NCBI GenBank assembly: GCA_000091205.1
Contig: AP006500.2
Length of the DNA: 64,000 bases
Source: Cyanidioschyzon merolae
Lineage: Eukaryota
Reading direction: 5' to 3' (one strand)
Of this stretch, positions 2,416-59,218 are shown in pieces (position 1 is the stretch's first letter; each line of letters starts with the position of its first letter). The notes below the pieces were generated by a model, which saw only the letters and a list, made by a program, of their open reading frames with translations, was not told where the DNA came from and did not search any database. Position numbers and translations under genes: made by a program.

Positions 2416-5400
2416 TGGGGTAATTGTACAGGTGCGCGCTTCTCGTTTCTCGCTGGTATTCTAGAAGAGCATTTTATACCGTAGTGTTGAGAAAATTCGA
2501 TCAGAAAGGCTGCATGATTTCGCTGATCGTTTGCGAAAAACGGCATTATTTATGCAAGTCAGATGGATTACCGTCAGCAGGCACACGAATGGTCCATCTC
2601 GTCGTCCGTATCCTGAACGTCATGCACCCGAAAGAGAACATATCCAGCTCCATCTACATGAAGATCTCGTCGTCAATCGATTCAACTTTATACGAGTCCA
2701 AAGGCAGGTCACCACGAAAACGCCACAGAATGTAAAGTTTCCGTACCGTTGATGCGAGCGTTAAAGCAGAGACTCGGCCGGAAGAAGTGAAACGCATGCG
2801 TCCACGGGAGACCGTCTCGCGTTGATCAGTACGCGATCGGGGTCGACCTGGAATGCGAGCAGTTGGTACAGGATCCACGGGTAGTCGTCTGACTCGAGAG
2901 AGAAGCGGTAGCGTTATACGGGGGCACACAAAGAGAAGCCCGCGTTCTGTCGGTAAACAGGAGACAAGAACGCGTGACGACGACTCGAGCCGGAATCAGT
3001 GGGTCAGTGGTGTGCTCGCTGACGAATCCGAAAAAAAACGAACAGGATCATTCGATACGACATCCTTGGTCGAGGCACGTTTGCGGCTTGTCCGCAACGC
3101 ATTCGTCAGCCGTGCTCTTTGACAACGTCGGCTTCTCTCATTCAAAAGCGGTCACGAACTACGCAGCTGAGACTGGCGTTGAGCCGCTCCTCGTGCCTGC
3201 CTATGCTCCCTGCGTCGGTCAAGTCAGAGGCGTCTTCGTGGTGATCAAATGTCATGTTTGCGTTCACGGATCAATGCACGAGCACTTCGCATCCCGAACA
3301 CCGGTATTCCGCAAATCGTGCTTCGACCAGTGGTGATCGTCGATTCCAGGTACGGCCGGTTCCCCGTGGCCAACGCTGTACCTCTTCATCCGGAGGAGAG
3401 ATCCAACGCCTGGATGGAGAGTAATCGGATCTGCTCAATTCTTCCGGGGCTCGTTATCTTCGGGCGTCCGGCGGCATGCCAGTGTATGGAATACCGACTT
3501 CCACATCCATATCGACGCTCTCAGCACAGTATCTAAGAGAAGCGAGTCTTTCTGCGCTGTATTCAGGGTGCGTCCATGAGACCGCGCTGCGGTCGTCGAC
3601 GATTTTCGGTAGCATCGCGTCAAGGAGCGCGTGCTCACGAAATGATTCTTCGAGTTGGAAACGGAGATCGCTGATAACTCGCGTTCTCCCATCGTAGCTG
3701 ATGGCGCTGGACATGCTGGAGCGCGCAGAGCCAGCACTCCTGATTCTATGATAAGCGCGTATCCAACAAGTGCAGTCATCGATTTTACACGATTCCCGTC
3801 GATGCGTTGAGGGTGCCGTCCACGAATCATGGGCAGGTTTCCACCTTGAAACAACTCGGTAAGCAGTGCGTGAAACAGAGACAGATGTCCGAGATTGGTG
3901 CACGAACCGTTAACCGAAAGTCGAATGGCGCGAAAAATCGAAAGTGAGCGGCTCGCTAGCGTCTGCTGCCACCAGCAGCAACCGAGCGCACAAGCACTTT
4001 CCTTACCGAGATCTGAACGCCTCAATCAACCTTCGGAAATATCGTCTGTTTCCAAAGCGTCTACTGGTTCTGTATCGAACGCACGCTCGAAGGAATCGTT
4101 GCGTACGTCGTGCAGATATGTTGCTGAAATGCAGGATACTTTCCATGAAAGACTCAGAGGCCAGAAGCGAGCGCATTGGAATCCCGGCTGGAGCATACCA
4201 CTAGAATATCGTACGGTTCAGCAATGTAGATAGGCTATGGCGCCGTATACAACATCTCGGAACGCTTTTTCGTCGTCATTAGCGTATGACCATGGCACTC
4301 CAGTTTTCCATGTCACTGGGTATCTCAGGCGCAAGTCTTATCAGCCTCTCGAGAAACACGGACGCAGTCCGGAACCCGATTGACCGATACACTTGGCCGG
4401 CTATGGAGCAGACGCTTTCCGTTGCCTTATCAGGCCAAATTACAGTGTACAACTCTGTCATGCCGCCTGGTTCGATTGCTCGAGTACGGCGTCGGATTAC
4501 CGCTTCTCGGAGCGCTGGCTAAGAACATGCAGTGTTCGTACATTGAAGCAATTGCCCTGACGACATTCCAGGGTCGCTGGGAAGGCGATGCATTTTAGAA
4601 TGGTCGCACAATATGCAGCTTGACAAGGTTCCGCGTCAATGTTGCGGTCGGCGTTCGAATGCGTTATGCGGTGTCCTGCTCCTCGAGTCATGCACGCTTC
4701 TTTCTATCCATGCCCTGGACGCTTCTCCAAACCACAGCTAGCGCTATGCGGTCAAGCGCCTCAAAGCGTCCGATCGTATTCATCTGGTTTGGCGCTACTA
4801 GGGTCCACAGAAACGCAAGCATTCAGATGAACTGAGAAAAAAGCAGCGCCTGGCAGCACAAGCTGCACGCTCATGGACGCTGCATTCACGCAGTGACCAC
4901 GTAACCAGCGAGAGACGGATATGCACATACAGACGCGGGACCGTCCAGAATTTCGGGTACATGTACGCAAACATGCACCGACCGCTTCGTATCGAAAACA
5001 CCCAAGGACTAGAGCCTTCCGTCGTTTATCAAACCGGGGTGTGATGACCCACGACCGAAACGCACGCTTTCTGCTCGCCGTAAAACGCGCGTGGAACAAC
5101 TCCATAGCTGTCGAGTGTCCAGCTACATACCTGGAGCCCAGATAGCAACTCGTGAAGCCGTCAATACGAACTCCAATCGGGGTTCAAAATCTGCGAACAT
5201 GACCATTAGATTTCGATGCCCGTTCATCGGTGCTCACTGCTGACCTCGATTCCCGCCTAGTCGCTGTCCCACTGTTCCAGATTCTCCTCCTGATTTCTCC
5301 ACAGCGACCGAAGCTCCATGCGATCCGGGGCGGCTGGCGTGTACCAAGGTCTGCATAGCTTCTGTGGAACGCTTCCGCTAGACATGCATCGTTTGTATGC

Positions 5401-5776: not shown

Positions 5777-6457
5777 CTAACTTTCGAAGAAAATGCTCGA
5801 CAGCCAGCCGAAAACGCTATCGAGCACGTATATGTAACTAACAGACAAGACTAAGAAGATGACAGATATCACAAGAATCCGCAGTGTTCGTTTCGGCGAG
5901 GGCCACTCGATCATCCGGAACTCGTCGGCAAGGTCCAACAGGAACACTATCCACGCCGGCAGACCCGACGTCTCCCGCAACTTCACTCGCCGCATGAAAG
6001 CCACTTCTCGCTCGATTCGTGCGTCCCACTGCTCATTAGGAGTTTGTTTTGGCACTTGATCGACGACCTTGTCAACGTGGTTCGAGATCCAGGGAAACAG
6101 CGCTTCACCTTCACCCGGGTTTGCAACGGCTGCGCTCGTCGACGCCCGCGTCTCCCGGGCAGTTTCAGCGTGCTCGTTCGTTCTTCGGGCGCCGTTTGTG
6201 TTTTCAGTACGCTTCCCAGACTCGATAAGCCGTTCGTCGTCACGTTCTCCTTCGTTCTGAGCGCACCGAAGGCGCGCCGAACGAGGTCTCACCCGAACGG
6301 CAGCAGCAGCAGCACGTTGCCGTCGTCCAAACGGTGCACAGCAGGTTGCTGCTCCTCCCAGCGCGAAACGTCCACGAGTGTAACGAAGTGTCTGTAGAGC
6401 AAAAGCGCTCGTTCTCGAAGCCGCAATCCTTTGATCCATTTCTGGTGCAACAATCAA
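5777..6457 (-). CDS. Hypothetical protein with a single C-terminal hydrophobic segment (tail-anchor-like).
   Basis: 226-aa ORF. The C-terminus ILVISVIFLVLSVSYIYVL is one predicted transmembrane helix followed by a short tail. No recognisable domain. Confidence 0.25.
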   Translation of the reverse strand: MIVAPEMDQRIAASRTSAFALQTLRYTRGRFALGGAATCCAPFGRRQRAAAAAVRVRPRSARLRCAQNEGERDDERLIESGKRTENTNGARRTNEHAETARETRASTSAAVANPGEGEALFPWISNHVDKVVDQVPKQTPNEQWDARIEREVAFMRRVKLRETSGLPAWIVFLLDLADEFRMIEWPSPKRTLRILVISVIFLVLSVSYIYVLDSVFGWLSSIFFES

Positions 6458-7377: not shown

Positions 7378-7775
7378 GCTCCCAAACGGAATCAGTTTAT
7401 AGTGTTATGGACACGATGTAGACACCTCGGAATAAGTTATATTTTTGGACTTCACTGCTCCGAACGGAATCAGTGTGTTGTATCATGGATACCATCTAGA
7501 CACCTCGGAATAAGTTATATTTTTGGACTTCACTGCTCCGAACGGAATCAGTGTGTTGTATCATGGATACCATCTAGACACCTCGGAATAAGTTATATTT
7601 TTGGACTTCACTGCTCCGAACGGAATCAGTATGTTGTATCATGGATACCATCTAGACACCTCGGAATAAGTTATATTTTTGGACTTCACTGCTCCGAACG
7701 GAATCAGTGTGTTGTTTCATGGATACCATGTAGAAACCTCTAAATACGTAATACTTCTCGACTTCACTGCTCCAA
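7378..7775. repeat. Tandem array of about 5 copies with a 78-bp period.
   Basis: The sequence cctcggaataagttatatttttggacttcactgctccgaacggaatcagtgtgttgtatcatggataccatctagaca recurs at 7425, 7503, 7581 and 7659 (period 78), with degenerate units at both edges. Confidence 0.9.
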
Positions 7776-16381: not shown

Positions 16382-18429
16382 AATCCTGTTTAGACGTCCG
16401 CACACTTCTGCCCTGTTGTGGTTGCGTGCTCGCAATGGATGTTGCAACTCGCCGACCGACAACAAGTCCAGTGCGAACTTTCCGAGATTTCGTGCATCTC
16501 GGTACCCAGGGACGAACGTGATCGCTCGTCGCGGGGTTCTTGGGATCACCAGCTGCGCGGCCGTTATGCTCTGGAGCTTCCGAGTGGGCGGCAGGAGTCA
16601 CCGTTGGCGGTAGTACCGAGCTAGAAAACGGAAACTCGAGTCTAAAAGTATTCACCGAGACTTTGCGTCGTTTTGCTGGTGAGTCCGCCTGAGGGGCATC
16701 CGAATACTCGCGACCTGTAATCACGAAAACAGAAAACAACTTGTCCTCCGGGTTGTCGGTTCCGAGGCGATGTGCTCGCAGAACATGCACGCTTGTTGTT
16801 GCCCGTTGTCACTGGTCGACGGAGAGTTACGTCTTGTATGACGCATGCTTCAGGTTTTCGGTCGCTGTCCTCGTGGGCAACTCGTGGACGCATCCATTGG
16901 TGCCGCTGGATTGATGATGAATGAAAAAAAGAAAATCGACCTTGTCCCTTGGCGACTCAATCACGTACTCATGCCGCTACTCCTCTGAATTTCTCTCACG
17001 AAAACTAATCATTGATCCTGATCGAAATATAAATCCTAATTTCTGTGTTGCCATCCACGGAAAAGCATTCAACAGCAGCATGATACCTCTCAGAGGAGAT
17101 AGATGCCCAGAGGCTCGCCCTCTCTTCTGGTTTCCATGGAAAAACGAAAACGTTCTTGGACTCGGACTTGAGTCATCGCAACGACCACGAACAGTGGAGC
17201 GTGCGTCAATCGTATGTACCAAGGGATCGTGGACGTAAAAAGACAAGTTTCTCGACTGCATCTTCGGTCTGGATTCTCGTTCCGAACCCTGTTTCATGAT
17301 GAGCAACATCGCCGTCAAAAAGTTATTCGTCGCATGGAACCGCCTATGCTTGCCTTTGCAGCAGTCGAGCCCGTTGAATATGAGCGTGTCTGGAACAAGC
17401 CCGTGATCCTCAGATACGACATCGGGCGCCCACAACGAAGCACGGCATCGAGGAGAAACTTCAACGCCGCTCAACAGCATCGATCGGGTGACTGAAGCAA
17501 GCGTTCACGAGCCACAGGACGTCTCGTGAATGACGAGATATATGGTGGATTTATCGCAACTCCAGCCTACCGTGATATGTTATTTGTGCAAAAGACGGAC
17601 GCCCCGTGGCTGTGCGTCAAGATCATGCAAATGGCAAATGAAGCGTCGATCGCAACGTTCGTCTCTTTTTTAGAAAATGTATGGACAACATGCGGAAGCA
17701 GCGAAATCGTGACTTGGACGTATCCGTCGGTACCCTTCGACTGCTGGCAGGGATCTGCGGTGACACCAGACACCTGTGCCTTGAAAGCCCGAAATAACAG
17801 AGGGCACAAAGACGGATTCGCAGAAAAGAATGCCCGCAATGGTCTATGTTGACGTCCTGGACACCGAACGCAAACTATGATGCGCATACACCCGAGTCCG
17901 CTGCATGCACCTGTTCGACTCCATGCCGCCATGATGTTGACGAGGATGGGTCTTACACGGCAGACGCCCTCGGGTTCACCAGTCAATATACACACTGATC
18001 GTCATCGTTGCAGCAGAAGCGGCACTGAATCATCAGTGATGCTCGCCGTGCCTGACCCGTGCGTAGCGCGTGTTGCTTCCAGGCCTGAGTATTGAAACGG
18101 GAGCGCGGTCGAAGGAGAGGTATCGACAAGATGCAGAGTCAGCTCGAGTCTGTTGTATTGGGACTCGCGTGCAAATCGGTTCACCAGCGTTCGATGCGCT
18201 GCGTGACGACGACAGAATCGTTGATGTCGTCGCGAGGTTACGTTCAACCATGCACACACACACAAGGACGCACAGTGTGAAAACCCAGACGCAATAGACA
18301 TGGGAACTGATCGCGCACTCGTGTCTGACGCCCGAGTGCTTTTCGTATGCGCGGAGCGGGTGCGCTGGGTGCACCGTTCACCAAACGTTGCCGTCCTCGG
18401 ACACGGGACGAACACCACTAGCCTTGCTG

Positions 18430-23019: not shown

Positions 23020-23229
23020 TAATCAATAGGAGACTCTTTGACGCCTTGCGTCTGAAGCGCTATGCGTGCTTTGCGTGCAGGGCGTCACGAAGCATGCATC
23101 TGCATGCGATGCGTTTCGCGCGTTGCTGGCGCGTTTGCGCTTGCCGCGAAAACGATCGATTGCTGCGGAGGCGCGCGTTCTGGAGTCTCCTGGGTTGATT
23201 ATCCTAGCGTTTTAACTTACATGTATTCC

Positions 23230-25660
23230 ACTGCGAGGTGCATGTAATCAAAAGCGTTTTCGCGGTTTATTACGGATGCTTTCGAAGTAGGTTCATTTGA
23301 AGGAAGAAATACACTATGAGAAAGGTGTGAACATGGACTTTGGGGATCCTGGAGGGCCTTCATCTCCGGGTTCCGGAAAAATATGAATAAACAGTTTCGA
23401 GCCCAGAGGAACGAAAGGTGACGAAGAAGCGAAGGGGGCAGGTCAAACGTCAAGAGCTTCGGGAGAAACGACACTAATACCAGATTGTAATGAAATCATA
23501 TCTTCGAGGCCATATTTGGGACGCGTACGAGCCCAAAATGCGAGAGGCTATCAGAAAGCGTGCCGATTCGTGTTCGAGCAGTTTTCGCTACGTTTTCCTA
23601 GGACTGATGCATTTAGTAAGGAAGACGTATCGCGACGCGAAGGATATCAAAACATTCGAGGTTCCGGAAGAATTATTCAACAGGACCTTTATTCGGCACG
23701 TGATGAATGGCGCAAGGGAAGCGTCGAGGAGGAATGAGCGAGTGTATGACCTCCACGAGAATCACGCTGAATACCGCTTCAACGGTACTCGATACAGGGT
23801 TGACATGCGTATTTACGAATACAGAGCGATAGAGTACCTCCCGAACCTAAAGAATCGTATGATCGTGAACCTCAAACGTTTCATGATACGCTCCATCTTT
23901 ACGCTCTACCCGGGCCTATCTCGCAAATGAATAGAGAGCATCATCAATGGGATGACAAACGATCGCCAGCATGAACAGGAGATCGAATTCGTCGACGAAA
24001 GGACATAGCACAGGAGTACGAATGAAGCTTCTGTAATGCGTGCGGCTATTCAAGAGCGCCGTGCGGTCTTGGGGCTGATCAATCAAGCAGAAAAGGTATC
24101 AGATATAAGAAAAGATGAAGAAAGATGTCATCTCCTCATCCTACGCTATTTCGTGTTCCTGAACCGAGAACCCGAACGCAAGGCGGAGATGGAGCTGGGT
24201 GTGGGAAAAATGGAGAGTGGGAGAGACAGAAGGCTGTGCTGCTGGAGAAGCGCTTCAACGCTGTACCGTTGTGCACCATCAAGCCACATTTTGTGACTAT
24301 CGATTCCGGCGTTCGCTACGGCATCATGAAGGAGATCTGTCCGGAGTTCAATGTAAGGAAGACAGCGTTCACCAGTGAAAACCGGACAACGCACTGGAAG
24401 AATATCTTCGATTTCAAGCGTCTCAAAACAAACAAGGGGAAGAAATTCGCTCGGATGATCGAAACAGATGGGGTAGCCATGTGTGTACACTGTCGGCGAT
24501 TGAAGGCAGATCGTCCAGTTCCGTCCTCCGCTTCGTCCGTGACGAATTACGACGATGAGTAGGAGGCGGACCCAGCCACGCAGGAGGTAGAGGATACTGA
24601 CTTTGTCGTTGGCGCGGACCCTGGGAATACGAATATCATAACCATCGCAGTACCCAAGCGTGCGGAGGATGGTAACGATCGCAATTTATGCCAGAAAGAC
24701 ATACATCAGTTAAACCTCTCACGAGCGAGATATCACCGAGAGTCGGGAGTACTTAATGCGAGGGAAAAATGAGACATGAAATGCAGGAATGCAAGAGCAC
24801 CTTGAAGCTATGAACCAGATGACGAGCCGCGGAGCAGACTTTCAAGCTTTCAGGAATTCATGGAAGTTCGCGTTGCTCATTGGGATGCGCTGTGGAATGA
24901 GTATGCAAAGCCCTGGTGGGCTCGTTTGCGTATGAATCTATACGGTGGGAGGCAGCGGGCGTTCGCAAACTTTTTCAATCAGTTGAGCGCCTCGAATGAG
25001 GATGAAATTCAGAGGCTCGGTGCAGCGTACGGAGCAGGGCGCTGGAAGACCAAAAAGTGACTATGCTAGCACCAACGATGAGAACGTACAAGGAGTGTGC
25101 AAGGCGTTTCGTTACGATACCAATAGATGAGTTTCGAACATTTTATACACACCATGAACTGGGGTGTACACTCCAGAGAGTGGAGATGGAAAAGTTCCAG
25201 CGGAGCCATGAGGATATAAAAACGTACGGAGCGCTGACGGTAGAGCAAATGGAGAGGAGGGCGAGACTTCGAGGACTACTTGCATTAGTAAGTACAACCA
25301 ATGATGGCAAGAAACGTATGGAATTCGTGAACTGTGACTTTAATGCCGCTATCAATATAAGGAAATGTGCGGTGCTGGAGACGAGACCTCCAGAGTTGAC
25401 ATGGGAGAATTTTGTGGGGCAACCTCTCAAAGTGGAATTATATGAGAAAAAATTGGAATCAGTAGTATGCGGCCGGTCCAAAAAGACTGCAAGGCGTCTG
25501 CACGTTACTAAGAGACGTCTTGTCTAGGGCGGGTTTCTCGCCACTACTCTACACTTCTGGTCGCAACGTTTGTCTTTTGAAAGGCGTTTGTTGTCGGTGA
25601 TGGCGGTGTTGAGTACTAGAATTCCCCGTGTGAAAGCCAGGAGGCAGCTTTGTCAGGTTG
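23230..25660 (+). mobile_element. Fanzor/TnpB-like element, copy A. Its ORF is broken by frameshifts and stops; boundaries are approximate.
   Basis: ORF pieces 23490..23930, 24036..24296, 24125..24562, 24860..25060 and 25057..25527 align in order with the 622-aa ORF at 56757..58625. It encodes Ruv[20 protein letters not shown] near 24590-24650 and RuvC-III MEFVNCDFNAAINIRKCAV near 25320. About 120 nt after the stop codon are conserved with copy B. Confidence 0.7.
23490..25527 (+). pseudogene. Fanzor-like RuvC nuclease pseudogene with at least four frame disruptions.
   Basis: The homologous segments sit in three different frames and are separated by stop codons at 23930, 24562, about 24770 and 25060. 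Confidence 0.7.
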
Positions 25661-26359
25661 ACGTGCGTTTTCCCAAGGATCAGGACGCTGCGACTTGGAC
25701 GAGTATTCAACGTCTCCTGGTCTAAACGTTGCGCACACGCACACGACGCCTCGCCGAGCTACCTTTCCTATGCAGCAGCATCTTCCCTAGAGTTTGCCGG
25801 GCTTGGGCTTTAATCAGGTGCGCTACGGCCTGAACGCCTTCTAATGCGGAAGAAGCCTACCCAGGGGGCGTACGCCTCTCGCACTGCTACCTCGGCGAGC
25901 GCAACTGCCGCTTGCTTTCAGGCTGCAAACTGCCACGGGGTAACGAGGTTGCCTGCCCTCGTCGTGCCCTGCCTTTATCGTAAGGATAATTCGATATCAC
26001 TTCAGCAGCCAAGAACAAAAGGCGCTCATAGGAACCGGTGGGAAGTCTCTCCAGGCACTACCCGGGTCGACGCGCGCCGACATTCCCCACGAAAGCAGGG
26101 CGCACACACACGTACGCAGCACTGAAGCAGCTGGTTGTCTCGCTCTGGCGTTTGCAACGCTGTGATGCTCGGTTTTGACGGGTATCGCTCGACGGAGGCT
26201 GTGCAGCAGCCAACTGAACATGCGCATCGGGGCTCGTCGCTTGAAATCATGTCAAGGTATGCAAAAGTTTAGTGGACAGCAAGATCAGCGAGCATTCCTT
26301 CGACCTCGAAAATATATCTAACTTTCTGGAGACCCATGAGATTCATGTCGCTCCCTGGT

Positions 26360-27358: not shown

Positions 27359-28786
27359 GGAAGCCGTATGAGCGTAGGCTCTATGACTTAAGTCTCAAGC
27401 TAAGGACACTGCGTAGCGCCACGTGACTCATGCCCGCTGAAATGCAAACGATGGAAAACGGGTTGTTTCGTGGCTGCGGGCAGCGACATCTCTAGTCGGC
27501 GCCAGCAAGAACAGAGCAGGTGGTGGGCTCTCTCTCTCTCTGGACGATGTCCGCAGCGGCGCTTTCGGCACCGTCATAAATGCAAACTGGTGGATCTTCA
27601 TCCGGAGGATTTGCATAAGATGCCAAGTTCCTCGATGGTAAGCCTGGTTGTGGCTTCCGGAACACTGGAGCTGGGAGCGGAATCGTGGGTACTGAAATCG
27701 ACGTCGGTAGCAATGGCGAGCTCGGGGAACGCCAGTCAAAGTGAGAGATCGGATGCCTCAGAAAAAGATCCATCAACGTGTTGAGAACGAAGCGCGGAAT
27801 ATTATCAAGCAGCTGCAAGATTGCTCTGCAGTACATGAATCAACAGTGGCGCTCGGTTCGACGTCCATAGTTACGGGAGGTTCCAAGCAATCATTTTCGT
27901 AGAAGAGACATTTTTGGGCAACCGCTGTGCACCTATGCGATGGAGCAATCTTGGCGCTCTGGAGCACACAGATGCTGCTGATGCTGCTCAAATGCTCGAA
28001 ACGTTCAGACTTCTTTTCACGTGCTCGCGCTGCGCTGGCTCCGACGTTTTCGGCCAATGTCTTTAGACCACGCCCTGACCGTTTTGAAGATCCCAGTTGG
28101 TATCTTGCACTGCACAGCAGTCATTCCAATCGATGCCTACATATCCTTCGATGCCCTTGGGACTGAATCCAAGCGTGTGAACGGACTCGCCAGGAGTCCT
28201 CGAAAATTCACCTAAATGTGCGTATTTATGTTCATGTCCATGCGATTGCCGCTCAAAGCTGCTGGCTCCAGAGCACCTGCGCGCCAAGGAGTCCCAAACT
28301 GGTCTCGCTTCCACTCACAAGCTGTGCTGTATGTCCGCTATAGGAGGCTACGCTGGATCTGCCGAGCAACGCTTCCCATGGTGAGTACTGTTGTGCAGGT
28401 GGTAGCGCTTGGAAACTCCATACGAGCAGAGGACCTCCATTCGCCGATTGTTGGAACCATTCGTTCACCCGCGGGCGTCTGTCGGACTCAGGTTTTGTAC
28501 ACCATGAGGGTACGCCAGCTCGTTGCTGGACACCCGCATACGGCGTGTGAGTATCTGCTCATCAACTGATCACAGGGATCCTAATCGCTCCGCTGGACGC
28601 CCGGATGAAAGCAGATCTTCCCGATTCGAACACCAGAGGCAATTTCTGTCTGTGTCGGACGGGATATGCTCGACTATGCATAGACTCGCCCGAAGGTATA
28701 TGAGACACGCGCGAGCTACCTCAATGATATGGATAGAGGCGCAGCGCTCAGCCGATCATCATATGCGAGCAAAAAAAGAATTCGAG

Positions 28787-29110
28787 CAGATTTCCAAGCA
28801 TGGAAGCCAACGCAAGACAAGAACAGATAAGAGCGATCTTTTTAGAGCAGTAATCAAGCACTAGCAGATTTCCAAGCATGGAAGCCAACGCAAGACAAGA
28901 ACAGATAAGAGCGATCTTTTTAGAGCAGTAATCAAGCACTAGCAGATTTCCAAGCATGGAAGCCAACGCAAGACAAGAACAGATAAGAGCGATCTTTTTA
29001 GAGCAGTAATCAAGCACTAGCAGATTTCCAAGCATGGAAGCCAACGCAAGACAAGAACAGATAAGAGCGATCTTTTTAGAGCAGTAATCAAGCACTAGCA
29101 GATTTCCAAC
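28787..29110. repeat. Tandem array of about 4 copies with a 78-bp period, unrelated in sequence to the array at 7.4 kb.
   Basis: cagatttccaagcatggaagccaacgcaagacaagaacagataagagcgatctttttagagcagtaatcaagcactag begins at 28787, 28865, 28943, 29021 and 29099. Confidence 0.9.
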
Positions 29111-29278
29111 CGTATGTTTTAAAGCAGAAAAAGTCAAGAGCGCCACGACGCCGTACATGCTCTCGCACGACCCAACCCCGAATCTGGATAAAGCCTCAGC
29201 CCCAAAGATCGTGCAAGTATTGGTACGGTGAGTGAAACGGAAACGTACTTAAACCGTGGAGGTTTGAGTATTAACCTA

Positions 29279-29850
29279 TGTGCAGACGCCTCCCAGCTTT
29301 TTTCGACCGGAAGCCAGTGGTCAGTTTTGGTTTATCCAGGCACCATACGAGCATCAGAGGCTGCCCCATAACATTAGATTGCCTAATTCCTTCAGCACTC
29401 GTCTTCAGCACCGAAAAATCGTGTGATATTGATGGCAATGTCGGAGTCTCGGATCACGAACTCCTTGTGCGCATTGCCGCTGGTTGAACGCATCAATGCG
29501 AGGATTGCTAGAACTCGCGCGCTCTGTGCGACTACAGTCTCGTTATCGCCCAGTGGGGCAAACACCATTTCTTGCCTGTCCGCCCGCTTCTTCTTCGTCT
29601 TCGGCACTAGCTCTTCATCGCTCGATGCTCGGCGAGAAGAGCGTTTTTCCTTATTTTTACCGGCATTCGGCGACGTTGACCCCTCCTGGATCCCCGACAT
29701 TCATGTCCATACTTTTCCCTTGGATTCTTCATTTCTTCAAACGGACACATTTCGAACACATCTGCTACAAGCCGCGAACATGCATTTGATAACACGCACC
29801 CGGATGCGGAACACCATTGAGGTGAACGACTTGAGTGAAAACGCTCACGC
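29279..29850 (-). mobile_element. Truncated 3'-terminal fragment of a Fanzor-like element (divergent subfamily).
   Basis: It starts with gtgcagacgcctcccagc, which matches the copy-B 3' tail at 56695. It then carries the reverse complement of the Fanzor C-terminal coding region (tattgatggcaatgtcggagtctcggatcac) and about 350 bp homologous to copy-B sequence near 56900-57250. Confidence 0.6.
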
Positions 29851-30033
29851 GGGACATCCGCCGAGGCGCTCTAGCCGACGCCCTCAGCGGTACGTCAAAG
29901 CCGTTCTTTCTCCGTGTTGCATCTGCACCAGCGGTGTGAGCGCTATCGGGAGTAGGCGCGGCAGGCACTCGGTGCACGATAGAATATATGGAACGACCAG
30001 TATATCCTAAAGGAAGTATGGGTCATGAAACAT

Positions 30034-30135
30034 GAAGTTAGGGTTCATCATGATGGACACTTGCTCGATTGCCATAATCCATCCCCCAAACTGGAATCCC
30101 TGCTCAATGGAAACGTTTTGTCGAACAAAAGCAAA
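30034..30135 (+). repeat. Dispersed repeat of about 100 bp; copy 1 of 2, with the second at 38004..38105.
   Basis: ataatccatcccccaaactggaatccctgctcaatggaaacgttttgtcgaacaaaa matches attatccatcccgcaaactggaatcccgtatcaacggaaacgttttgtcaaacaaaa at 38041. Confidence 0.6.
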
Positions 30136-33659: not shown

Positions 33660-36600
33660 CGTGCTTGATGACGCTTGGATCGGAGGAACCTGGAGAACAT
33701 GTTGTGTGGTTGCAGATGCCGCAAGGCGCTTCTGCGAAACGACCGATTCGGTTGCACCATGATCAAGGCGAAACGTTCGTGCGCTAACCTTGCAAATGGA
33801 TGAGCAAGCAGGTGCGGCTCTCGGGTGTCTACGTCCGCTCTGCGATTCGAATGCAGACTCAGCACGCTGCATTCATGGTAGTATGGATAGAGCCTGAGCA
33901 GAGTGCTTTCGCGACGTCTGTTGGTCGTGGAGTTCCTGCAGAGGCAGCTCGCTGCTGGCCCCGAATAGCTTTGAACCATGCTTGAGGAATGCACACTGCG
34001 TTCCGAGATGCGTATGAGCGTCTGGCAAGCGACGCTGACGTGTGTCTCGGCTGCGGTGGAACCGTGTCGACACTGCGGTGCACGTCGCTGTTCGCACATG
34101 GGCAAAGAGAGGGTGGATAACCTCGGCCTAGCATGCGTTCTCAATGACACAATAGACTACCGTGAATGGACCTTGTTGTTGCCCCTGGTGTCGTTGTGAG
34201 TGCTGCAGCATTCGAATGATGCGCTGTTCGCGAAAACGCGATGCCATTCGCATCCGGTAATGTCGCAGTCGATATGCCGGTGAGTGCATTTGTTTCCGTT
34301 CGAAAGCGGACGCGGTGGCGCCAGCGCCTTAGTGCGACGCCCGGCGCTCTCCGCAGGCAAACCGCAAGCAGTGTTCCCGCTGTCGCATCTGACGCTTGAC
34401 TGCTGATCGACGCTGCCTAGTTTTCAGTTCAGTGCGCGGGAACTCTTGGTGCATGGATTTGAACGATGATGACATGCCTCGGAATTCGACACCGTATTGG
34501 ACGCTTCCGGAAACTACCACCGGTTCGGTCAACGAGCCTCGGAACGGCTACAGCCTCCTCGGGATCGCTGCACCTCGAGATGCTTCCAAACATACCTGAT
34601 AGAGGTTGCGCATATGTTCTGGGTGCGCGTTCAGATGCGCAGCCGAGCGAGTCTGCTGACTCATGAATGAAACGAAGTAGGTCATTCGTTTTCGATTTTC
34701 CCTGCTGAAGATGATACTCTCGTGATTGCTCAGATGCGTGGCATACGGCGGCAGCAGCAGCAGCAGCAGCAGCGTCGAGACCTCGTTCTCTAGACTTGTG
34801 TCCAATGAAAATGGAAAAATAAACTGTTTACTCGGTTCGTGTTTGTCGATTTTCTTTTGGAAATTTTATTCGGATGCTAAGCTTCGACACTGAAAGTGCT
34901 GTCATACGGGCTTGTGGATTCTCACAGAACGCCAGGATGCTCGGTCGTCGTTTCCGATTGGCTGCTTTGACCTGCTGCCGCTGGAATTCGATACGTCACT
35001 GGAATGCAGATGATTCGCGACAACCTCGAACTGTTCTTCGTCCAATAAACGATATCATTATTCGATGCAAGTGTACGAGCGTCCGCTCCTCGAATTTCCT
35101 TCCTTGTGGCATGCCCATATCCTGCGTTCTTCATGTGATCGATCTCTCTCTGATTCAACCCATATCATAGGCAGAATACTTCGCAATAATGGATTGATGC
35201 GAAACAACTCGGTTTCGATCCTTGATGACTTGTTCGCAAGCTCATGCCGAATGTTCACTGTACCTACCATCTTAAATATGCGATTTCGTTCCAAATGCAG
35301 ATGCTGCTGTATCTGGAGCCGTTGACGAAACGGGGCTCCACAACGCCAGCATACCTTTCGTGACACACGCCTCCGGTGGATCGTGTTTCTTTTGTTTGCG
35401 TAGATACTGGTCTTGGACTCGAGGTTTCGTCATCGCAACGATTGCTTGCAGTGGACCGTTCGATTTCTCTTTTTCCACAGCTGAGAGCGTAAATGGATCG
35501 AAAGTTCTCGTCTTCTACGTATCTGGATTGTATTTCCGGTACTTGTCCTATCCGGCGCATCATCCTGTTCGGTAAATCCTTTATTGAATGCAGCAGATTT
35601 CGCTTTCGCACATAGCGGACAGCAGACACATAGTGCGGATCACCCAGAAGAAGCCCTTGGTCTAAGGGTACAGCACCGAGCGTGGAAACGGAAAGGAGCA
35701 TCGAGGAGAGTCTTCTGCACCCGACAACGGTATTTACGGAGCGAGGAAGCAAGCGTTCGGGCCTCACGGCGGGCGGCGGCCACAGGAGCAGGATGAGGAG
35801 GTGCTGTTGACGTATACGAAACACACGACCACAATCGACTTTCATTGCTGTGACAGACCCCATCGAGGCTGTATTTAGAGAAGATCAACATGATCTGCGA
35901 GGCTTCGATTGCAACCATTGCTTGTGCATGAAATGTATCGACAAGAGCTGGATGCACTGAGATAGGGACATGAACGCTGCCATCAACATCCTTCGACTGC
36001 TGAGAATGGAACTAGAAGGACAGAGGACAACGGCGTGTTCACAAGTGGAGATAAGCGAGAGGCAAAGGCTGCGATCTGCTGGTGAACATTTACCGAGAGT
36101 TTAGGATCCACGCCCGAATCGCAGGGCCGGCTTCATTTCTACTCTGACATGGGCGTAGACTACATGCCAATAGCGCTGTCCGCTGGGCGTGGCGTGTTGA
36201 ACACCGCTACTCGCGAGCGATGAACAGATTCTCAACGGCAGTTTGCTTCACGTCATAGCAGACCAGCTACACGCACTATGGTTGCTGTTCCTTCAGCAGA
36301 GCAACAAGATTTATAACGAATGCAAACGATGCTTTCGAAAGACCGAGCGGATGCAAGATTCGTCAATCGATGACGATTCTGGTGCGTTATGCCGTCCTCC
36401 ATGGATTCATGGCTTTGGATCTTCTTCACAGCGTGATTTCCTGTCGCAACAGGCGGTCTCCGGAAAACATCATGATCGTCGTGTTCTGGATACACGCCTG
36501 AAACAGGTGCCATTGTCCTCGGGCAAGGCGACTGCGCTGCATGCATTCTCGAGGAAAATGGGTATCTTGCCCGCGTCTACTTCACGAGGAGCCACAACTT

Positions 36601-38003
36601 CTCCAATCGGACGCCGTTTATCGATTCCCTGGACGCAAGTTGCAGCGTTCTCACCTCCCCGGATTCGATACGCAGTGCAGCGCGAGACATCAGGTCTACC
36701 AGAGGCATCGTTTGACCCTAACGACCTCTTTCCCAGAGGGCACGCTGTTCGTCGCCGTCTGGTGTGCACTGCGAATTGGCATGCACGGAGTCCGTCAACT
36801 TGCCACGAATATGCCGAATGAGGAAGCCTGAATGAACACTGCCCCAGTGATAGGCTGCATCGTCTCATGGTTGATTCGGAGCAAGCGCCGCACGTGAGTT
36901 TGCTGGAGCACTGCATTCGAAACTTCGTAAACGGATGCGCGCGGCTCTGGTCCTAAGCGGGCTGCCATCGACGCATTCTTCGATGCACAGCGGGGACGCT
37001 TTGCATTCACAAAGCCACGAATGAGCACTCGTTCACGCAGCCAGGTTCCCACTGCACAAAAAGGCGTTCCTGCATCTCTCCGAGACCGCGCCTGTGTTTC
37101 GAGAAGAGTTTCCGAAGAGACTCTCCTTGCTTGTTTTGCTTTCGATGTATCCGTGAATTTAAAGCTGCAGGTTTCCCGCCATGCGCGCACAATTTATCCC
37201 GTGAACAGGTACGAGCATCTCTGTACTTGGTGGACCATCGAAGTATTCACCTAGCTATCCTTTCGGGCGCAAGTTCTTGCCAGCCCACGTTTTTCATGAC
37301 TCATGATCGGTGCGTTCAACCACATGCCCTGGTACGCCAACCTCGATTCCAGGAGATCCTGGATCGAAGCGTCACTATCGTCACACCATCACAGAGAGAA
37401 GCGCTGTGTACCGGCCCTGAACAGATTCAAACGCCATGAAGCATTCTGCGTCGAGAGCACAGAAACGAAATGCTACCTAGCAACGAGATCAGAATTTCTT
37501 TCCGTCTCTACGGTTGGCATTGAAAGGGGGAATGGTTTTCCGTATTTTCGAAAGTTTACATTTTTTAGGCAGAAGATCCAGCGAGCTGGACGGGTCTGCC
37601 AGGCCAGTGCTTCATGTGCCTCTGCTGGGACAGGTGCGGTGTCGAGACCTGAGCAACTCGTCCGCAACGCAGTTCTTTCCGGATTTCGGAGCTGGTAGAA
37701 TGTGTCTGGGCGCTGCCCTGATTGCGATAGTCTGCTAGAATATCGCTTCGCGCTGCCGCAGGAATCAGGTCCGGCTGCGCAGATTGCTGGCTCCCAGTAT
37801 GATCATGAATCCCAGTCCTGTGACTAGTGAACCACACCTCGATCCGACGCTCTCTGTTGTATGGTAAATATGCTCTGTCTTCATCTCACATCTGCAACGT
37901 CGCTGCAAGGACTATGGCAGGTGCAGCAAGGCGGGTATGCGGCGCACTATAGAACATACAACACGACCAGTAAATCCGAGATCAAGTCTAGGAAAATAAA
38001 CTT

Positions 38004-38105
38004 GAAGGTAAGGTGCAACATCACTGACGCTTTCTCGTTTACCATTATCCATCCCGCAAACTGGAATCCCGTATCAACGGAAACGTTTTGTCAAACAAAA
38101 CAATT
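38004..38105 (+). repeat. Dispersed repeat of about 100 bp; copy 2 of 2.
   Basis: Matches 30034..30135 in the same orientation. Confidence 0.6.
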
Positions 38106-41863: not shown

Positions 41864-42898
41864 TCACCGTAGGATCGTTTCGATCATGGACTGCGCTTGG
41901 TCATAGTATCCGCCACCAAACAGGGCGCCATGATTCAGAATATGGTAAAGGTTATAAATCACACGACGTTTCTCGCGGTAACCTTTTGGCAAGGGCCAGC
42001 TAGCGTCATAGGCCTGGTAAAATGCACGAGGCAGGCGGCCAAAGAGCTCAGTCATGGCGAGATCCACTTCGCGGTCCCCATAGTAAGTTGCGGGATCAAA
42101 GATGACGACCTCATTCTGGTTCCGCAACGTCGCTACGTTGCCGGTCCACAGATCGCCATGCACCAGGGAAGGCGTCACCTGGTGCTGAATTTCATGCTCC
42201 TGTAGGACCGAGTGCACTCGTTGCAGAAGCGCATCTTCGTTACGCAAACGTCCGCCTTGGCGAGACCGTGCCAGCTTGAGCTGATAGCGAAGGCGATTCT
42301 CCACGAAAAAGTCGGCCCAGCTGTGCATCCAGGTATTGAGCTGGGGCGTCGAACCAATAGTGTTTCCGCGGTGCCACCCGTACCCGCGGCCACCGGAAGA
42401 GCAACGATGCATCGCCGCAAGCTTCTCGCCAAAGTCTCGATAGACAGCCTCGTTACCGATTCCGCCTAGCTCGAGGTATTCGAGAACGATGAACGACCGT
42501 TCTGCGGTGTTTCCATAGCAGATCGGCGCTGGTACCCGAACCGTCTCGGACTCCGCCATAGCCTGAATGCCTTCAAACTCAGCACTGAACATGGATACCG
42601 CCTGTGGCTCACTAAGTTTCACAAAGTAGCGCTCGGTAGAGTCGTTCCGATTCAAAAGCTCCGCGCTCGTCGACCAGCCGCTACCCAGTGCACTTGCGCT
42701 GCGAAGTTCGCCCTGGAAGCTTCGCTGCAACGCTGCAGCGACACTTTCAGAAACCGCTCGAGAGAGCTCGCTGGTATACAGTGATCCCATGGGCCAGTTA
42801 GCGTGCGGTTGGCTGTACTGGAGCAGCGTCCTTTTTCGACAGCGTACTAGTGACACACAAACAGAACTCACTACACCGACACAGCGAATGCCTTCCAA
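41864..42898 (-). CDS. FN3K: Fructosamine/ketosamine-3-kinase family protein. An alternative start lies at 42790.
   Basis: YFVKLSEP...FEGIQAM near the N-terminus, the catalytic LVHGDLWTGNVA motif and the C-terminal LYHILNHGALFGG match FN3K family hallmarks. Confidence 0.8.
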   Translation of the reverse strand: MEGIRCVGVVSSVCVSLVRCRKRTLLQYSQPHANWPMGSLYTSELSRAVSESVAAALQRSFQGELRSASALGSGWSTSAELLNRNDSTERYFVKLSEPQAVSMFSAEFEGIQAMAESETVRVPAPICYGNTAERSFIVLEYLELGGIGNEAVYRDFGEKLAAMHRCSSGGRGYGWHRGNTIGSTPQLNTWMHSWADFFVENRLRYQLKLARSRQGGRLRNEDALLQRVHSVLQEHEIQHQVTPSLVHGDLWTGNVATLRNQNEVVIFDPATYYGDREVDLAMTELFGRLPRAFYQAYDASWPLPKGYREKRRVIYNLYHILNHGALFGGGYYDQAQSMIETILR

Positions 42899-42959
42899 GC
42901 GCCAAACGCTGTATAGGCGGTGTTTAGGAGTGGCGAGCGGTGCGCCGCCCGCAACTGAC

Positions 42960-43540
42960 TCTGCGTCTGCCCAACAACGTGCAGACGCCTCCTAGTCTTT
43001 CTAGACCGGCCACCTATGAATGGGTTCAACTTCTTCCGGTATTATTCGACCTTGAGAGGTTCCTTCACAGGGTAAGTTCGCGTCAGCTCTGCGGGTCTCT
43101 TCTGCATCACCGCATATCTCCTTCTATTGATAGCAACGTGAAGGCCTCGATGCACAAACTCCATGCATACATCACCGCTGGTTGAATTCATCAGTGCAAG
43201 GATTCCTCGACGGCGTGCCCTGTGTGCCACTACAGTCTCGGTATCGCCCGTCGGGCAAACATCTTTTCCTGACCATCTCGCCTCTTCTTGTTCCTCGTAT
43301 CACTTGCTCTTCTTCGCGCGAAGAATCGGCGAGGAGTTTTTCCGTTTTTTTTCCGGCAGCCGGCGATGCCAGCTCTCTAGGATCCCCAATTTGCGTATTG
43401 AAATTTTTCCCTTACATTTTTTCTTCTTCGAATGAGCGCACGTCGAACGCATCTGCTATGAACCACGAAAGAGCATTGAATGTCAAACACCAGGAAGTAA
43501 AACACATTCGAGGTGAAAGACGTGAACAGGTTGCATAGAG
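42960..43540 (-). mobile_element. Truncated 3'-terminal fragment of a Fanzor-like element, same subfamily as 29279..29850.
   Basis: gtgcagacgcctcctagtctttctagaccggccacc at 42979 matches the copy-B tail. The minus-strand ORF 43042..43230 translates MEFVHRGLHVAINRRRYAVMQKRPAELTRT, a degenerate RuvC-III region (compare MEFVNRDFNAAVNIRRCAVLETRPPELNTRE in copy B). About 350 bp that follow are collinear with 29476..29850. Confidence 0.6.
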
Positions 43541-53048: not shown

Positions 53049-53560
53049 TCATCGTATGGTGAACGCTTGCGCGATTCGCCCAGTGGAGCGATCATTATGT
53101 TTCACGATAGAAAACATTCGTTCGATGGCATTGTACCACAGAGTGTACGGAGGAATGAAAAGCAGGTCCATGTTGGATCGAACCAGCAAATGCTCGAACG
53201 TAGGGGTAATAGTGAAATACCACGCAGTCCAATAGAAGGACATCGTCAGACGTCAGGGAAAAGTCTTCTAGGACTCGATAAAGTGGGGTTGTTGTGTGAG
53301 CCTTCTCTACGAGAGAAACTTAGGCCGCCAAATAAATCCACTGCAGTTAGAATAGATGATGTCGTCCCTTTTTCGAGTTCGATTGTACGTACATCGTGCT
53401 CCCTGCTCCGCGAGTACACATTTCCGCTCCGACCGTTTCGTCCGAAGGAATTCTCATCGACGGGAAAAACAAACCCACGTCCATCTGCTTCATACCGATC
53501 GCTGAGTTCCGGGAACGTTGTTGTACTTGCGATTTCGGTGGAAGATGGATGCACGTGAAC
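53049..53560 (-). pseudogene. IS630/Tc1-mariner DDE transposase remnant.
   Basis: The minus-strand ORFs translate VFPVDENSF, which resembles the first-Asp motif vfiDEsgf. They also give LLFIPPYTLWYNAIERMFSIVK, which resembles LPPYSPDLNPIE, the third catalytic motif of Tc1/mariner transposases. The frame is interrupted. Confidence 0.5.
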
Positions 53561-56270
53561 TATGACTTTTTTCGCGGCGGTATCCCAGTGTTTTCATAAC
53601 CATACGAGCAAGCTGATACGAATCAGAGACGCACTTGGCGACTGCGATCGACGCATTGTTTTCCTACTAATGACAGCAATGAATCTTTGGGTATATCGGT
53701 TTTTGGCGCGGGGCGCGTACAACTTTTTCTTTCTTTCAGTGCTCGCCAGTCAGCAGAGTACTGTGGTATGACTGATCTGAAGGAGGAATGCAGTCATCCT
53801 TGCACTGTTCAGTAGAGGATATAGATTCAAAAGGCAATTCCCCGACGATCTCTGCTGTACAACGCATAGTGACGTCGATCGCTTGTTCCTCACTGTGGAA
53901 ACAGCATTCAATTCCATGCAGCGAAGATCCTGTACTATTGAGCTGAATGTCCAGAGGTACCGGATGTCGTGCGCCCCAAAAGAGTCAGCGATTCGGACGT
54001 CACCGCCGCCACTGATGACGGCTCATGCCCTCCGGCACAGGCGCAGATCTCGCAGATCTCGGCAGGGACCCCTGCCTGGACGCCCGTGAGAGTGGATCAC
54101 TTGTACCGAGGCGCGCGGTGATAAATTTCCATCATCATCGCTGAGCATGTGCCGGATGAAGATTCATCACGGACGAGTGACTGATACTGCACATCGATCC
54201 TGCGCGAGTATAGTCAGACGATTCTGTACAGAAAGCAGTATATAAATGCTTGCGCGACGCCGCACCGAATGATGCTCGAGTACCTATGTCCACTTCGTAC
54301 ACTTAAATCCGTGTTTTCGGTTGGCGTTCAGGCACAGGCGCGCCGTCTTTCGACGCGCGATCCGTGTCGGGCGGTGGTACTCCAACGTCGCCGAGTCCGG
54401 GAACAGAGGCGGCGCGAATCGAATCGTGCGTTTCGCTATCCCTGTCGCCGAACTAGTACGTATCGCGATCGCAGCCGGACGCATTTTTGTAGATTGTGCC
54501 GTCTACTAGTGGGGCAAGACGCTTCCTTGAACACACCTGCGGCACTGCTACGTTCCAGAAGCTGAACTGATCCTGCTGCTCGGCTAGGATGCAAGCTCGA
54601 GACGGTACCTTCTGGTGCACGCCTATCGTTCCATGCAAAAGATCGGTCAGCATGCAGCGTCCTGGATCAGCGACCTCGGCGGTGGCGGTACAGTTTTCCG
54701 CATGGAGCTAATGTTCAGCACCCGTTCCAGACCAGTCATCCTCTCAATAGCACCTTTCCGTCTCAACCGTTCCTAATGTGAACTCGCTGGCGTTCCAGCA
54801 CTATGCTACAACCGATCATAGCGCTATGCAGCGCCGGGCTGGAGCAATGGAAACGGCAGACGATGAGCGCCTGACTCGCAATCGACTAGTATCCGATAGT
54901 GGTATTGCCCCGCTTATTGGTGTCGCTGCAGTTCTCCGTCGGTGCGTGCGGGCAGGTGGCATCGTCAGAGCATCGTTGAGCCTTGATCGGACCACCCTAT
55001 TCGGATGGTGACACAGGTTTCCGTCTGGAACCAAACAGCATCGCACGCCAAAATCTTAGGTCTGCAGTCCTGTCCAGGCGCTGAAGTACAGTTATCTGAA
55101 TAAGCCAGTCAGTCGGCGCTCATCTTGCGTGGTCGTCTTCCTAAGCGAGTTGGGTTGCGCGATGAGCAGGACTCTGGGCAAACGAACGCTAAACTGGAGT
55201 CCCGGCATTTGTATACATCTGGCTGGCAGCTGCTGAACAACAAATCATCACTAGCTCAGATGATCTATCGTCCACTGTTGGAAAGACTCGTTTATCCAAT
55301 ATCTCGGATATTCGTGCTTCTGCATAGGCGCACAAGTCGCTAGACTCATCGAAGCATCGCTGTGAGAAAAACGTGCTGTGGCCCGCTTCGTTGTCGTGAA
55401 CACAGGTGATCCGCATCCATAGAGGTGCGCACTTCCCGTAAATGCAGACCGCTCGTGAAGCCATTACGGATTCTGTGTCTTGGTCCAGGAGAGGGGAACG
55501 CTTCGCTCTCACGCTCAACATTAGTCAACAGGCTCAGTACAATGCCGTACTAGGCGTCGCTCGCGCGGTTTTCGACTCTCCCGACTGCCAGCCAGAGCGG
55601 CATGACGCCTCGTGTCGTCAGTGGTCATCGATAGCCTACTGCAATGCAACCGTAGCCCTCAAGTCTCGCCTTTCCAAGACACGGAATCCGGTGGTATGCC
55701 CCTTTCCTGCCGCACTCCGCTGGTCGCTCCTGCCTTGCATGTGAGACTGAAACGACGCAAAGATCCACAAAACCCAGACGCCGCAGCCACAAATAACAAC
55801 ATCCCACCTCGTGAAACGATTTCCAGTAGTCCACCCGTTCCAGCACTGAGAAAGGCAGAACATATCCATATTACCTCATGGAGGCCTCCATTTGCGGTTT
55901 GTGCTCTCTAGTACGCTTCGTTGGCATATTCGCTCCTTCTGGGTCCGTTGGTGTGTGCGGAGGTCCCTCTATCCACCTGTCAAGGAGCGTTGATCGTATG
56001 CAAGCGCTTCTCATGGGGCTTTAGCGGTACTCGGGGCAACTCGAATACTCAGCGTGTGCAGGGCGCTGGTCGACGCAGCAACTGCTCCCGTGCCTCACCC
56101 AGACATAGCCATACACGTATGACCAGCTTTAGTCTAGTGCGCTGCAACAGACTTCCGACATTTCGCCCCCAAGCAGCAAGTGGGGCCTTGAGGAGCCCTG
56201 TAAGCGTGTGGTCGCAGCTTCAGTACAGCAGAGGACCATCTCGACTTGCTCTATTTTAGCCACGGGTTCC

Positions 56271-58700: not shown

Positions 58701-59218
58701 GTCATGAAGTAGCAGCTCGATAACAATTTCTTTCCCCTCTACGGTAGGCGTTAGATGGGGAAAGTTTCTAAGCTTTCGAAAGTTCACCTTAGAGGCGGAA
58801 AAGCGCGCGAGCGGGACGAATTTCCCAGTCTCATGCTTCATGCTCCCTCCAGTGCCCAGCGCTGTAGCGAGATATAAGCAGCTTGTCCGAAACGCAGTTT
58901 ATTCTTGGACTCTGAACGGGTAGCCTGCGTCTGGTCGTCGCGCTGGTCCCAGTGGACTCCTAGCGTATCGCTTCGCGCAGCCGCAGCCGGTAGGTCTGTC
59001 CGCGCCGTTTCCAGGTTCCCAGAATGATAACGAATCCCGACCCCGTATCAGATGAACCCTGCCTCGATCCGGCACCCTCTGTGGTATGGTAAAGCCTTTC
59101 TGTCTCCGTGCTGCATCCGTTCCAGCGGTAGAAGCGCCACGGCGAGTGCTCAAAGCAGGTAATCGGCGCATGATAGAACATTCGAAACGACCGGTGCACC
59201 CGAAAGAATACACCAGTA

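Follow-up and report, generated by a model that had tools for sequence, protein, structure and literature searches.

The DNA considered here is a 64,000-nt stretch of the genome of the red alga Cyanidioschyzon merolae 10D, referred to below as the window, in whose numbering all positions are given. It carries several copies of a repeat encoding a Fanzor1-like protein, and the conserved segment that follows the coding part of this repeat is the main subject of this report. A Fanzor1 family named CMe-1A was previously described in C. merolae, with ~150 copies of ~3 kb, no terminal inverted repeats (TIRs), a target-site duplication (TSD) that could not be determined, and 635 bp at the 5′ end that are the same as TE-N2_CMe, an element in its own right (Bao & Jurka 2013, PMC3627910). 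The repeat in the window is identified as CMe-1A by its match to this published description, not to a Repbase consensus sequence. An open reading frame (ORF) of 1529 aa in the neighborhood exactly matches CYME_CMR449C of C. merolae 10D.

Four copies of the element were delineated. Copy A (23212–25599, + strand) represents a short 5′ form that in-frame stops and two frameshifts have made a pseudogene; its left boundary was set by comparison with copies C and D and with metagenome copies. Copy B (56601–59323, – strand) is a long 5′ form with ~790 nt of extra 5′ sequence relative to the short form, including a TE-N2_CMe-like module, and its tail lies at 56709–56601. The long form measures ~3.2 kb. 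Its first ~640 nt at the 5′ end stand alone elsewhere in the window as a solo module of 645 nt (37456–38100, –) that resembles the TE-N2_CMe element of Bao & Jurka and matches B 59323–58688. Copy C (42874–43518, –; tail 42989–42874) is a 645-nt non-autonomous derivative that joins the 5′ ~170 nt of the element to its 3′ ~340 nt, corresponding to A 23210–23381 plus A 25258–25599 in a permissive search of the window, and it has the best-kept fold there. The same search showed that positions 29814–29280 of copy D (29232–30130, –), an internally deleted derivative, align with A 23223–23424 and A 25257–25503, and it detected an extra 5′ piece of CMe-1A at 52969–52872. CMe-1A copies are ~70–85% alike; A 23539–24352 and B 58222–57408, for example, are 74% identical. 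At least three different 5′ extensions occur in CMe-1A, each common to a subset of loci.

The encoded protein can be classed as a Fanzor1, a member of the eukaryotic TnpB-like nuclease family, by profile comparison. A frameshift-corrected conceptual translation of copy A served as the query and gave 49 homologues, and a family profile was built from 11 of them. This profile matched SpuFz1 (8GKH; E 8.6e-13, profile positions 269–645) and GtFz1 (9CER; E 0.0035), and the matches to these solved Fanzor1 proteins span RuvC-I, -II, and -III. RuvC catalytic motifs I (D), II (E), and III (D) are all present in the copy A translation and in P0001, with motif III reading N(R/C)DFNAAINI, and the CMe-1A motifs align with VIDPNKRD, DEYKTS, and NRDM of SpuFz1. 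Copy B lacks motif I. The family profile alone succeeded, as a single-sequence PDB search found no match, and Pfam scans of the B ORF, the A fragments, and the frameshift-corrected A protein gave nothing usable. The TNB/zinc-ribbon domain (PF07282) was matched by distant members P0048 and P0049 only, at 20–25 bits and below the Pfam cut-off of 26.3, and CMe-1A copies have HHELGC at the expected CxxC position. The Fanzor ORF also contains a 75-nt (25-aa) tandem repeat just upstream of RuvC-I (L001 ~6146–6450, encoding P0001), with one to four units among family copies.

The last open stretch of the copy A ORF (25057–25527, +) encodes RuvC-II (IDEFRT), RuvC-III (NCDFNAAINI), and a basic C-terminal tail ending in GRSKKTARRLHVTKRRLV at the stop. 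In most copies, the family frame is open through FVGQPLKVELYEKKLEAVVGGRSKKTGRRLHVSWRRFV to a TAG, located at 25525–25527 in A and 56675–56677 in B, and up to this stop region, identity is 0.80–0.86 at codon positions 1 and 2 versus 0.70–0.72 at position 3. The true non-coding tail of A is therefore 25528–25599, or ~72 nt. Copy B has an ORF of 622 aa (56757–58625) from which ~450 nt are missing, RuvC-I included. Its stop at 56757, from which the initial annotation had begun the tail of this copy, is premature, resulting from a 1-nt insertion frameshift followed by a TAA, so 56678–56756 is former coding sequence and not tail. No intact, expressible Fanzor gene was found in the window, given the stops and frameshifts of A and the ~450-nt deletion and premature stop of B, and the Fanzor system there is a relic with broken ORFs in A and B and partly decayed stems.

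The tail shared by these copies is certainly the right end of CMe-1A, one of the two readings offered in the initial annotation, as it is found at ~40 independent insertion sites and similarity is lost at a common point in the tails analyzed. A pattern scan of metagenome contigs gave 109 loci, several of which coincide with the genomic sites of A, B, and C, and merging them by flank left ~40 distinct insertion sites, from which 37 tails were analyzed. All 37 share one layout and diverge at one point, ~15 nt past a GGCGTT and usually at ...GGTG, and column identity across the aligned tails falls there from 0.62–0.86 to 0.25–0.30. In the window, A 24820–25591 and B 57385–56610 are 84% identical over 778 nt (E=0), and the A–B, A–C, and B–C similarities all end within ~10 nt of A 25591–25599 (limits of ~25591–25600 in A and 56610–56601 in B). 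Past 25600, a global alignment of A and B gives 54% identity with many gaps, which is noise. The element thus ends at ~25599 in A, 56601 in B, and 42874 in C. A covariance model (CM) of the tail matches exactly three places in the window, one in each of copies A (25525–25606, +; E 5e-22), B (56595–56677, –; E 1e-13), and C (42869–42949, –; E 1e-11). The tail similarity between A and B reported in the initial annotation is therefore real, but it stops ~50 nt earlier than the 25650 and 56585 given there, and the two tails are 75% identical over 73 nt, with ~93% over the first ~40 nt, instead of 85–90%. Likewise, the block GGAGGCGTCTGCAC is indeed present in the two fragments noted at that time (29278–29290 and 42977–42989), but the same tail continues only in copy C, to 42874; in copy D, the block (GGCGTCTGCACAT at 29290–29278) is followed by a different tail, termed type 2 below.

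One reading of such an end is that it is simply the terminal inverted repeat of a cut-and-paste transposon, and distant relatives of the protein lend some color to this. In every relative fetched from outside C. merolae, the Fanzor gene comes immediately after a DDE_3 (Tc1/mariner-type) transposase gene, and those with both ends on a contig are inside TIRs of 28–32 nt; moreover, CMe-1A starts with CACC and ends with GGTG. However, a left-end consensus compared with the reverse complement of the right end gave a local score of 12 versus a shuffle mean of 12.6 (p=0.75), the right end did not significantly resemble the TIR of the relatives (p=0.86), and Bao & Jurka also report no TIRs. As there is no inverted left–right match, the tail is not a TIR, which removes one of the conditions named in the initial annotation as refuting it, and we consider this explanation extremely improbable. 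The left end (GACAAAACG...) had been considered as a mirror of the right end (CGTTTGTTGTC) and was rejected by the same shuffle test. By eye, no TSD was apparent at the flanks of A and C or at five insertions of the P0095 relative described below, with no TA or other duplication, and no empty (pre-insertion) sites occurred among 110 fetched loci. The 6 nt immediately 5′ of the left end are often GTCTTT, GTCCTT, GTCGTT, or GTGTCT, both in CMe-1A and in the DDE_3 elements of C. merolae (e.g., window 23203–23211 and 43519–43527; L110, L014, and L033), and could be either a target or target-adjacent motif (TAM)-like sequence or else the actual start of the element.

In copy A, the final codons and 72 non-coding nt make up the terminal ~110 nt of the element (25490–25599), and three hairpins (H1, H2, and H3) recur in single-sequence folds (RNAfold). 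The layout of the 37 tails begins with GGCGTCTGCACGT-CAGTTGG-AGACGYYTYGTC-TAG-GGCG..CGCC-ACTACTGTACAC and continues with a variable arm, AACGTTTTTC-TTTT-GAAAGGCGTTTG, and a G/T-rich arm ending in GGTG, after which the sequences are unrelated. H1 (25490–25522, +) lies within the last codons and pairs CAAGGCGTCT with AGACGTCTTG around a 13-nt loop. The near-invariant block GGCGTCTGCACGT (25493–25505) provides its 5′ arm and differs by one or two changes at most in the four listed copies without an exact match to the search pattern, and the family core of H1 is 7 bp (GGCGTCT/AGACGYC), extended to 10 bp in copy A. The TAG stop and H2 follow at 25525–25548 (+), as (TAG)GGCGGG-TTT-CTCGCC(A CTA), and the H2 stem is often lengthened by TAG/CTA pairing. 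Variants with longer stems include L086, with a perfect 9-bp H2 (GGCGGGCGG-TTTT-CCGCCCGCC), and copy C, with 8-bp stems in both H1 and H2. The linker ACTACTCTACAC at 25543–25554 (+; family consensus ACTACTGTACAC) is the best-conserved non-coding stretch, as the pairwise identity of these 12 nt is 0.86, the level of first and second codon positions, versus ~0.70 at third positions. Finally, the terminal hairpin H3 (25555–25599, +), which is degenerate in copy A, has an inner stem, AACGTTTGTC/GAAAGGCGTT (25565–25588), and a G/T-rich outer 3′ arm that forms the last ~25 nt of the element and ends in ...CGGTG. At L034 (2371–2442, +), the terminal hairpin is swapped for a perfect 15-bp palindrome, CCGGCGAGCACGCGC-TCGT-GCGCGTGCTCGCCGG, which starts with the conserved 5′-arm bases of the family; selection for a hairpin is one possible cause, and a DNA hairpin or fold-back process that left it as a footprint is another.

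The tails fold in a strand-dependent manner. Relative to dinucleotide shuffles, the sense strands of the 37 tails have a mean z of –1.1 to –1.6 and a mean energy of –38.3 kcal/mol, versus –0.15 to –0.48 and –28.3 kcal/mol for the antisense strands (paired p ~1e-5), a gap that stems from many G·U pairs. The tail of copy C forms three strong hairpins with a minimum free energy of –62 kcal/mol (z –3.83, 0/200 shuffles as stable), and z reaches –3.8 in L025 and –2.3 in L120. Stems that differ between lineages yet pair perfectly (H2 in L086, H3 in L034, and both H1 and H2 in copy C) likewise favor an RNA fold. In an alignment of 59 distinct rows fitted to the CM, 61 cells are changed on both sides of a pair versus 35±5 in shuffles (0/500 as high), 16 pairs covary versus 12.1 (7/500 as high), including the top pair of H2, pair types are also above almost all shuffles, and every measure peaks at slide 0. 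Since a CM-fitted alignment leans to its model, this covariation is given moderate weight only and offers moderate support for an RNA fold.

Structured tails of a similar plan occur in relatives at 25–40% protein identity (P0041, P0042, P0065–P0070, P0073, P0076, and P0095). Their tails measure 74–225 nt from stop codon to right end and open, at the corresponding position, with a hairpin whose sequence is unrelated (AAGGGG/CCCCTT, TAGAGGAT/ATTCTCTA, CCAGAG.../...CTCTGG, or GGGTGC/GCACCC); after it come a linker of the ACTGTAG, AATCAGG, or ATATAC type and a segment resembling GGCGCCGGTG; the ACTGTAG motif resembles the CMe-1A linker. A second helix usually encloses the hairpin, with a sequence that varies by lineage and a complementarity that is kept (CGGCG/CGCCG versus CGGTG/CACCG and GGACGGG/CCCGTCC). 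The P0095 tail, at 74 nt, is built like the 72-nt tail of CMe-1A: a 6-bp hairpin leads, and the final bases of the element form the 3′ arm of a second, terminal hairpin (z –2.3). The P0095 element (L120–L125) carries an intact DDE_3 gene plus Fanzor and was found as identical copies at five or more sites in one metagenome set; it is probably an active transposon, judging from these copies, and would be a good experimental stand-in.

No DDE_3 transposase lies inside copies A, B, C, or D, and tblastn with the relatives' transposases detected DDE_3 relics in the window at 2689–3330 (+) and 53147–54001 (–) as well as in many fetched loci. The window relics are 26–33% identical to transposases upstream of Fanzor in distant relatives, and a 5′ piece resembling that of CMe-1A (52969–52720) comes after the second on the – strand. 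Three stretches are common to CMe-1A and the DDE_3 elements of C. merolae, namely the left end (CAnCTCAAT...), a segment of ~100 nt preceding the Fanzor start, and the final 250 nt of the Fanzor ORF up to and including the block GGCGTCTGCAC, after which the DDE_3 elements have a different, ~60-nt type 2 tail with the consensus ...GGGTATTCATTTACCC..GCGAAACGTTTTCG... Type 2 tails were seen at 29232–29290 (–) in the window (copy D), at L070 10342–10400, and at L110, L033, L072, and L056; one shared 3′ ORF remnant is thus joined to two alternative right ends. Judging from these shared parts, an ancestor with both a transposase and Fanzor appears to have given rise to CMe-1A and to the DDE_3 elements.

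With the family identity, the exact right boundary, the lack of a TIR, the recurrent hairpin layout, and the folding strand bias established, the likeliest role for the tail is, in our judgment, that of a candidate scaffold for a Fanzor guide RNA (ωRNA, or fRNA), a reading in which we place somewhat better than even confidence. A sense transcript would fold into H1, H2, a conserved single-stranded linker, and the terminal H3, and would continue into the flank from 25600 on, which would supply the guide. Under the TnpB/Fanzor model (PMC10530073, PMC11423790), the flank outside the right end of copy A (25600–25620, +) is then the candidate guide source. We infer that such an RNA would be transcribed, processed, bound by Fanzor, and active in guiding. 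The conserved region spans the last codons to the boundary common to the 37 tails, which is the position expected of an ωRNA, and the scaffold proposed in the initial annotation is plausible by virtue of its size, its stem-loop layout, its strand-specific fold, and the relatives' hairpins, although the weak covariation and the pseudogene status of the window copies count against it.

Several observations weigh against this role, and some of them are what would be expected if the tail were a passenger 3′ untranslated region (UTR), alike among copies by common descent and with incidental hairpins. Conservation of the whole tail equals that of the adjoining dead ORF, as for any part of a repeat, so the earlier argument from conservation across decaying copies to function does not hold, the 12-nt linker alone standing out. 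Copies A and B are pseudogenes, and their folds are not significantly better than shuffles (z –0.88 and +1.0), while the family mean z-scores are modest. Covariation is positive only in the model-fitted alignment, whose rows are mutually related. In a MAFFT alignment of 19 "class I" tails, pair counts were not above shuffles, and for a MAFFT alignment of all 37, RNAalifold gave eight pairs, all invariant, and missed H3; because hairpin length and register vary between subfamilies, the structure cannot be represented in an alignment of sequence. In an arm-swap permutation of the outer H3 helix, a tail's own 3′ arm paired no better than those of others (p=0.17), so no claim of lineage-specific compensation is made for this helix. 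Evidence on a conserved fold is mixed, with the sense-strand excess, the CM-fitted covariation, and the relatives' hairpins of different sequence on one side and the MAFFT alignments, RNAalifold, and arm-swapping on the other. The 5′ arm of H1 was preset by the search pattern, and about one-third of the 3′ arms break one pair. Rfam, searched at E≤10 over 24900–25800, returned two chance-level matches only. Finally, the hairpins might instead function as DNA. A passenger 3′ UTR would nevertheless leave several findings without an explanation, namely the identity of 0.86 in the linker versus 0.70 at third positions, the strand-specific folding excess across the family, the hairpins of unrelated sequence at the same position in relatives of only 25–40% protein identity, and the existence of stem-lengthening variants. 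We regard that alternative as unlikely.

Action at the DNA level is the more serious competitor, albeit one that we hold to be considerably less probable than a guide-RNA scaffold. The tail would in that case be a cis element, i.e., a right-end recognition or processing signal for whatever mobilizes CMe-1A, such as a subterminal hairpin or a binding motif on single-stranded or nicked DNA, with no guide-RNA role. The sharp boundary and the conserved last bases ...GGTG speak for such a signal, and the lack of TIRs and TSDs together with the variable 5′ ends fits a 3′-anchored mechanism. Moreover, H3 is nearly palindromic in its inner part (CGTTCGA-CTT-TCGAACG or AACGTTTTTC-TTTT-GAAAGGCGTT), similar GAAACGTTT motifs close the type 2 tail, and the perfect palindrome of L034 is a possible product of a DNA hairpin process. 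On the other hand, the G·U (G·T) pairs favor folding of the sense strand, which is RNA-like, though top-strand single-stranded DNA would give the same bias. H1, H2, and the linker lie 50–110 nt inside the end, which exceeds the usual need of a DDE transposase, and relatives with proper 28–32-nt TIRs still keep a structured spacer of 75–225 nt between stop and TIR. DNA and RNA roles also coexist in TnpB and Fanzor systems, so that a cis signal and a guide-RNA scaffold are not mutually exclusive.

It is also conceivable, though we would assign this idea a low probability, that CMe-1A no longer moves in a Tc1/mariner-like way and spreads instead by 3′-anchored copying, with the right-end hairpins and possibly Fanzor and its ωRNA as the cis signal. 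The idea stems from the loss of the transposase and of both TIRs, the absence of a TSD, the several 5′ modules, the one fixed hairpin 3′ end, and the ~150 copies. Copying could take the form of nuclease-triggered, repair-driven spread or of a rolling-circle-like or one-ended process, and we know of no such 3′-anchored mechanism described for Fanzor elements.

For annotation of the genome, 25490–25599, 56709–56601, and 42989–42874 should be treated as right ends of dead or non-autonomous CMe-1A copies and not as host regulatory sequence. If the ωRNA were confirmed, it would provide a compact, ~110-nt Fanzor1 guide scaffold from a thermo-acidophilic red alga, and it would tie the unclassified family CMe-1A to DDE_3-associated Fanzor1 elements. 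No guide RNA for this C. merolae element or lineage is reported in the literature searched.

Other repeats and relics also occur in the window. A second, decayed TnpB/Fanzor-like relic lies at 35100–36110 (+), with a weaker paralogue at 17154–17746 (+); its translation, ...CNHCLCMKCIDKSWMH followed after a stop by DRDMNAAINILRLL, holds a zinc-ribbon remnant and then a RuvC-III motif, and it has no DNA-level similarity to CMe-1A, to which it is unrelated. In addition, two arrays, each of four 78-nt tandem repeats that are 78–94% alike, are found at 7382–7771 and 28758–29147, the latter adjoining the right end of copy D.

Saito 2023 reportedly deals with Fanzor1 ωRNAs, among them those of SpuFz1, PpFz1, and GtFz1. 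Known Fanzor1 ωRNAs are 75–150 nt long and possess a 7-bp stem-loop 1 (SL1), followed by one to three stem-loops before the guide (Xu 2024, PMC11423790). The candidate described here, like those of SpuFz1, PpFz1, and GtFz1, is encoded by the 3′ end of the Fanzor gene and extends as far as the right end of the element; its ~110 nt are within the known size range, H1 has a 7-bp core like that of SL1, and more stem-loops precede the guide position. It shares no sequence similarity with them and is known from DNA alone.

The guide RNAs of other Fanzor nucleases derive from a 3′ non-coding region that abuts the right end, with conservation that reaches the ORF (Jiang 2023, PMC10530073). In common with the fRNAs of ApmFNuc, MmFNuc, DpFNuc, KnFNuc, and CrFNuc, CMe-1A has a structured, conserved region between stop and right end, and its conservation likewise reaches into the coding region. 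The fRNAs of Jiang 2023 were sequenced from purified ribonucleoproteins, whereas the CMe-1A candidate is a prediction, and their non-coding regions are often ~200 nt, compared to 72 nt in CMe-1A. The same work links a clade, "Fanzor1c", with Mariner/Tc1 (Jiang 2023, PMC10530073), an association of Fanzor1 that was also noted earlier (Bao & Jurka 2013, PMC3627910). The resemblance of CMe-1A to these elements is one of gene association, as its relatives sit beside DDE_3; CMe-1A itself is without a transposase, a TIR, or a TA duplication. Relative to the original account of CMe-1A and TE-N2_CMe (PMC3627910), the genome, the Fanzor1 ORF, the length, the solo 5′ module, and the lack of TIRs and a TSD are all the same, and the anatomy of the right end, copy A as a short 5′ form, the non-autonomous derivatives C and D, and the alternative type 2 tail do not appear in that account.

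Finally, compared with the ωRNA of TnpB in IS200/IS605 elements, CMe-1A has a eukaryotic host, no TnpA (Y1) transposase, and no Rfam match. The logic would nonetheless be the same, with a scaffold that overlaps the 3′ end of the nuclease gene, stops at the right end of the element, and takes its guide from the flank, and a subterminal hairpin could serve DNA and RNA roles alike in both.

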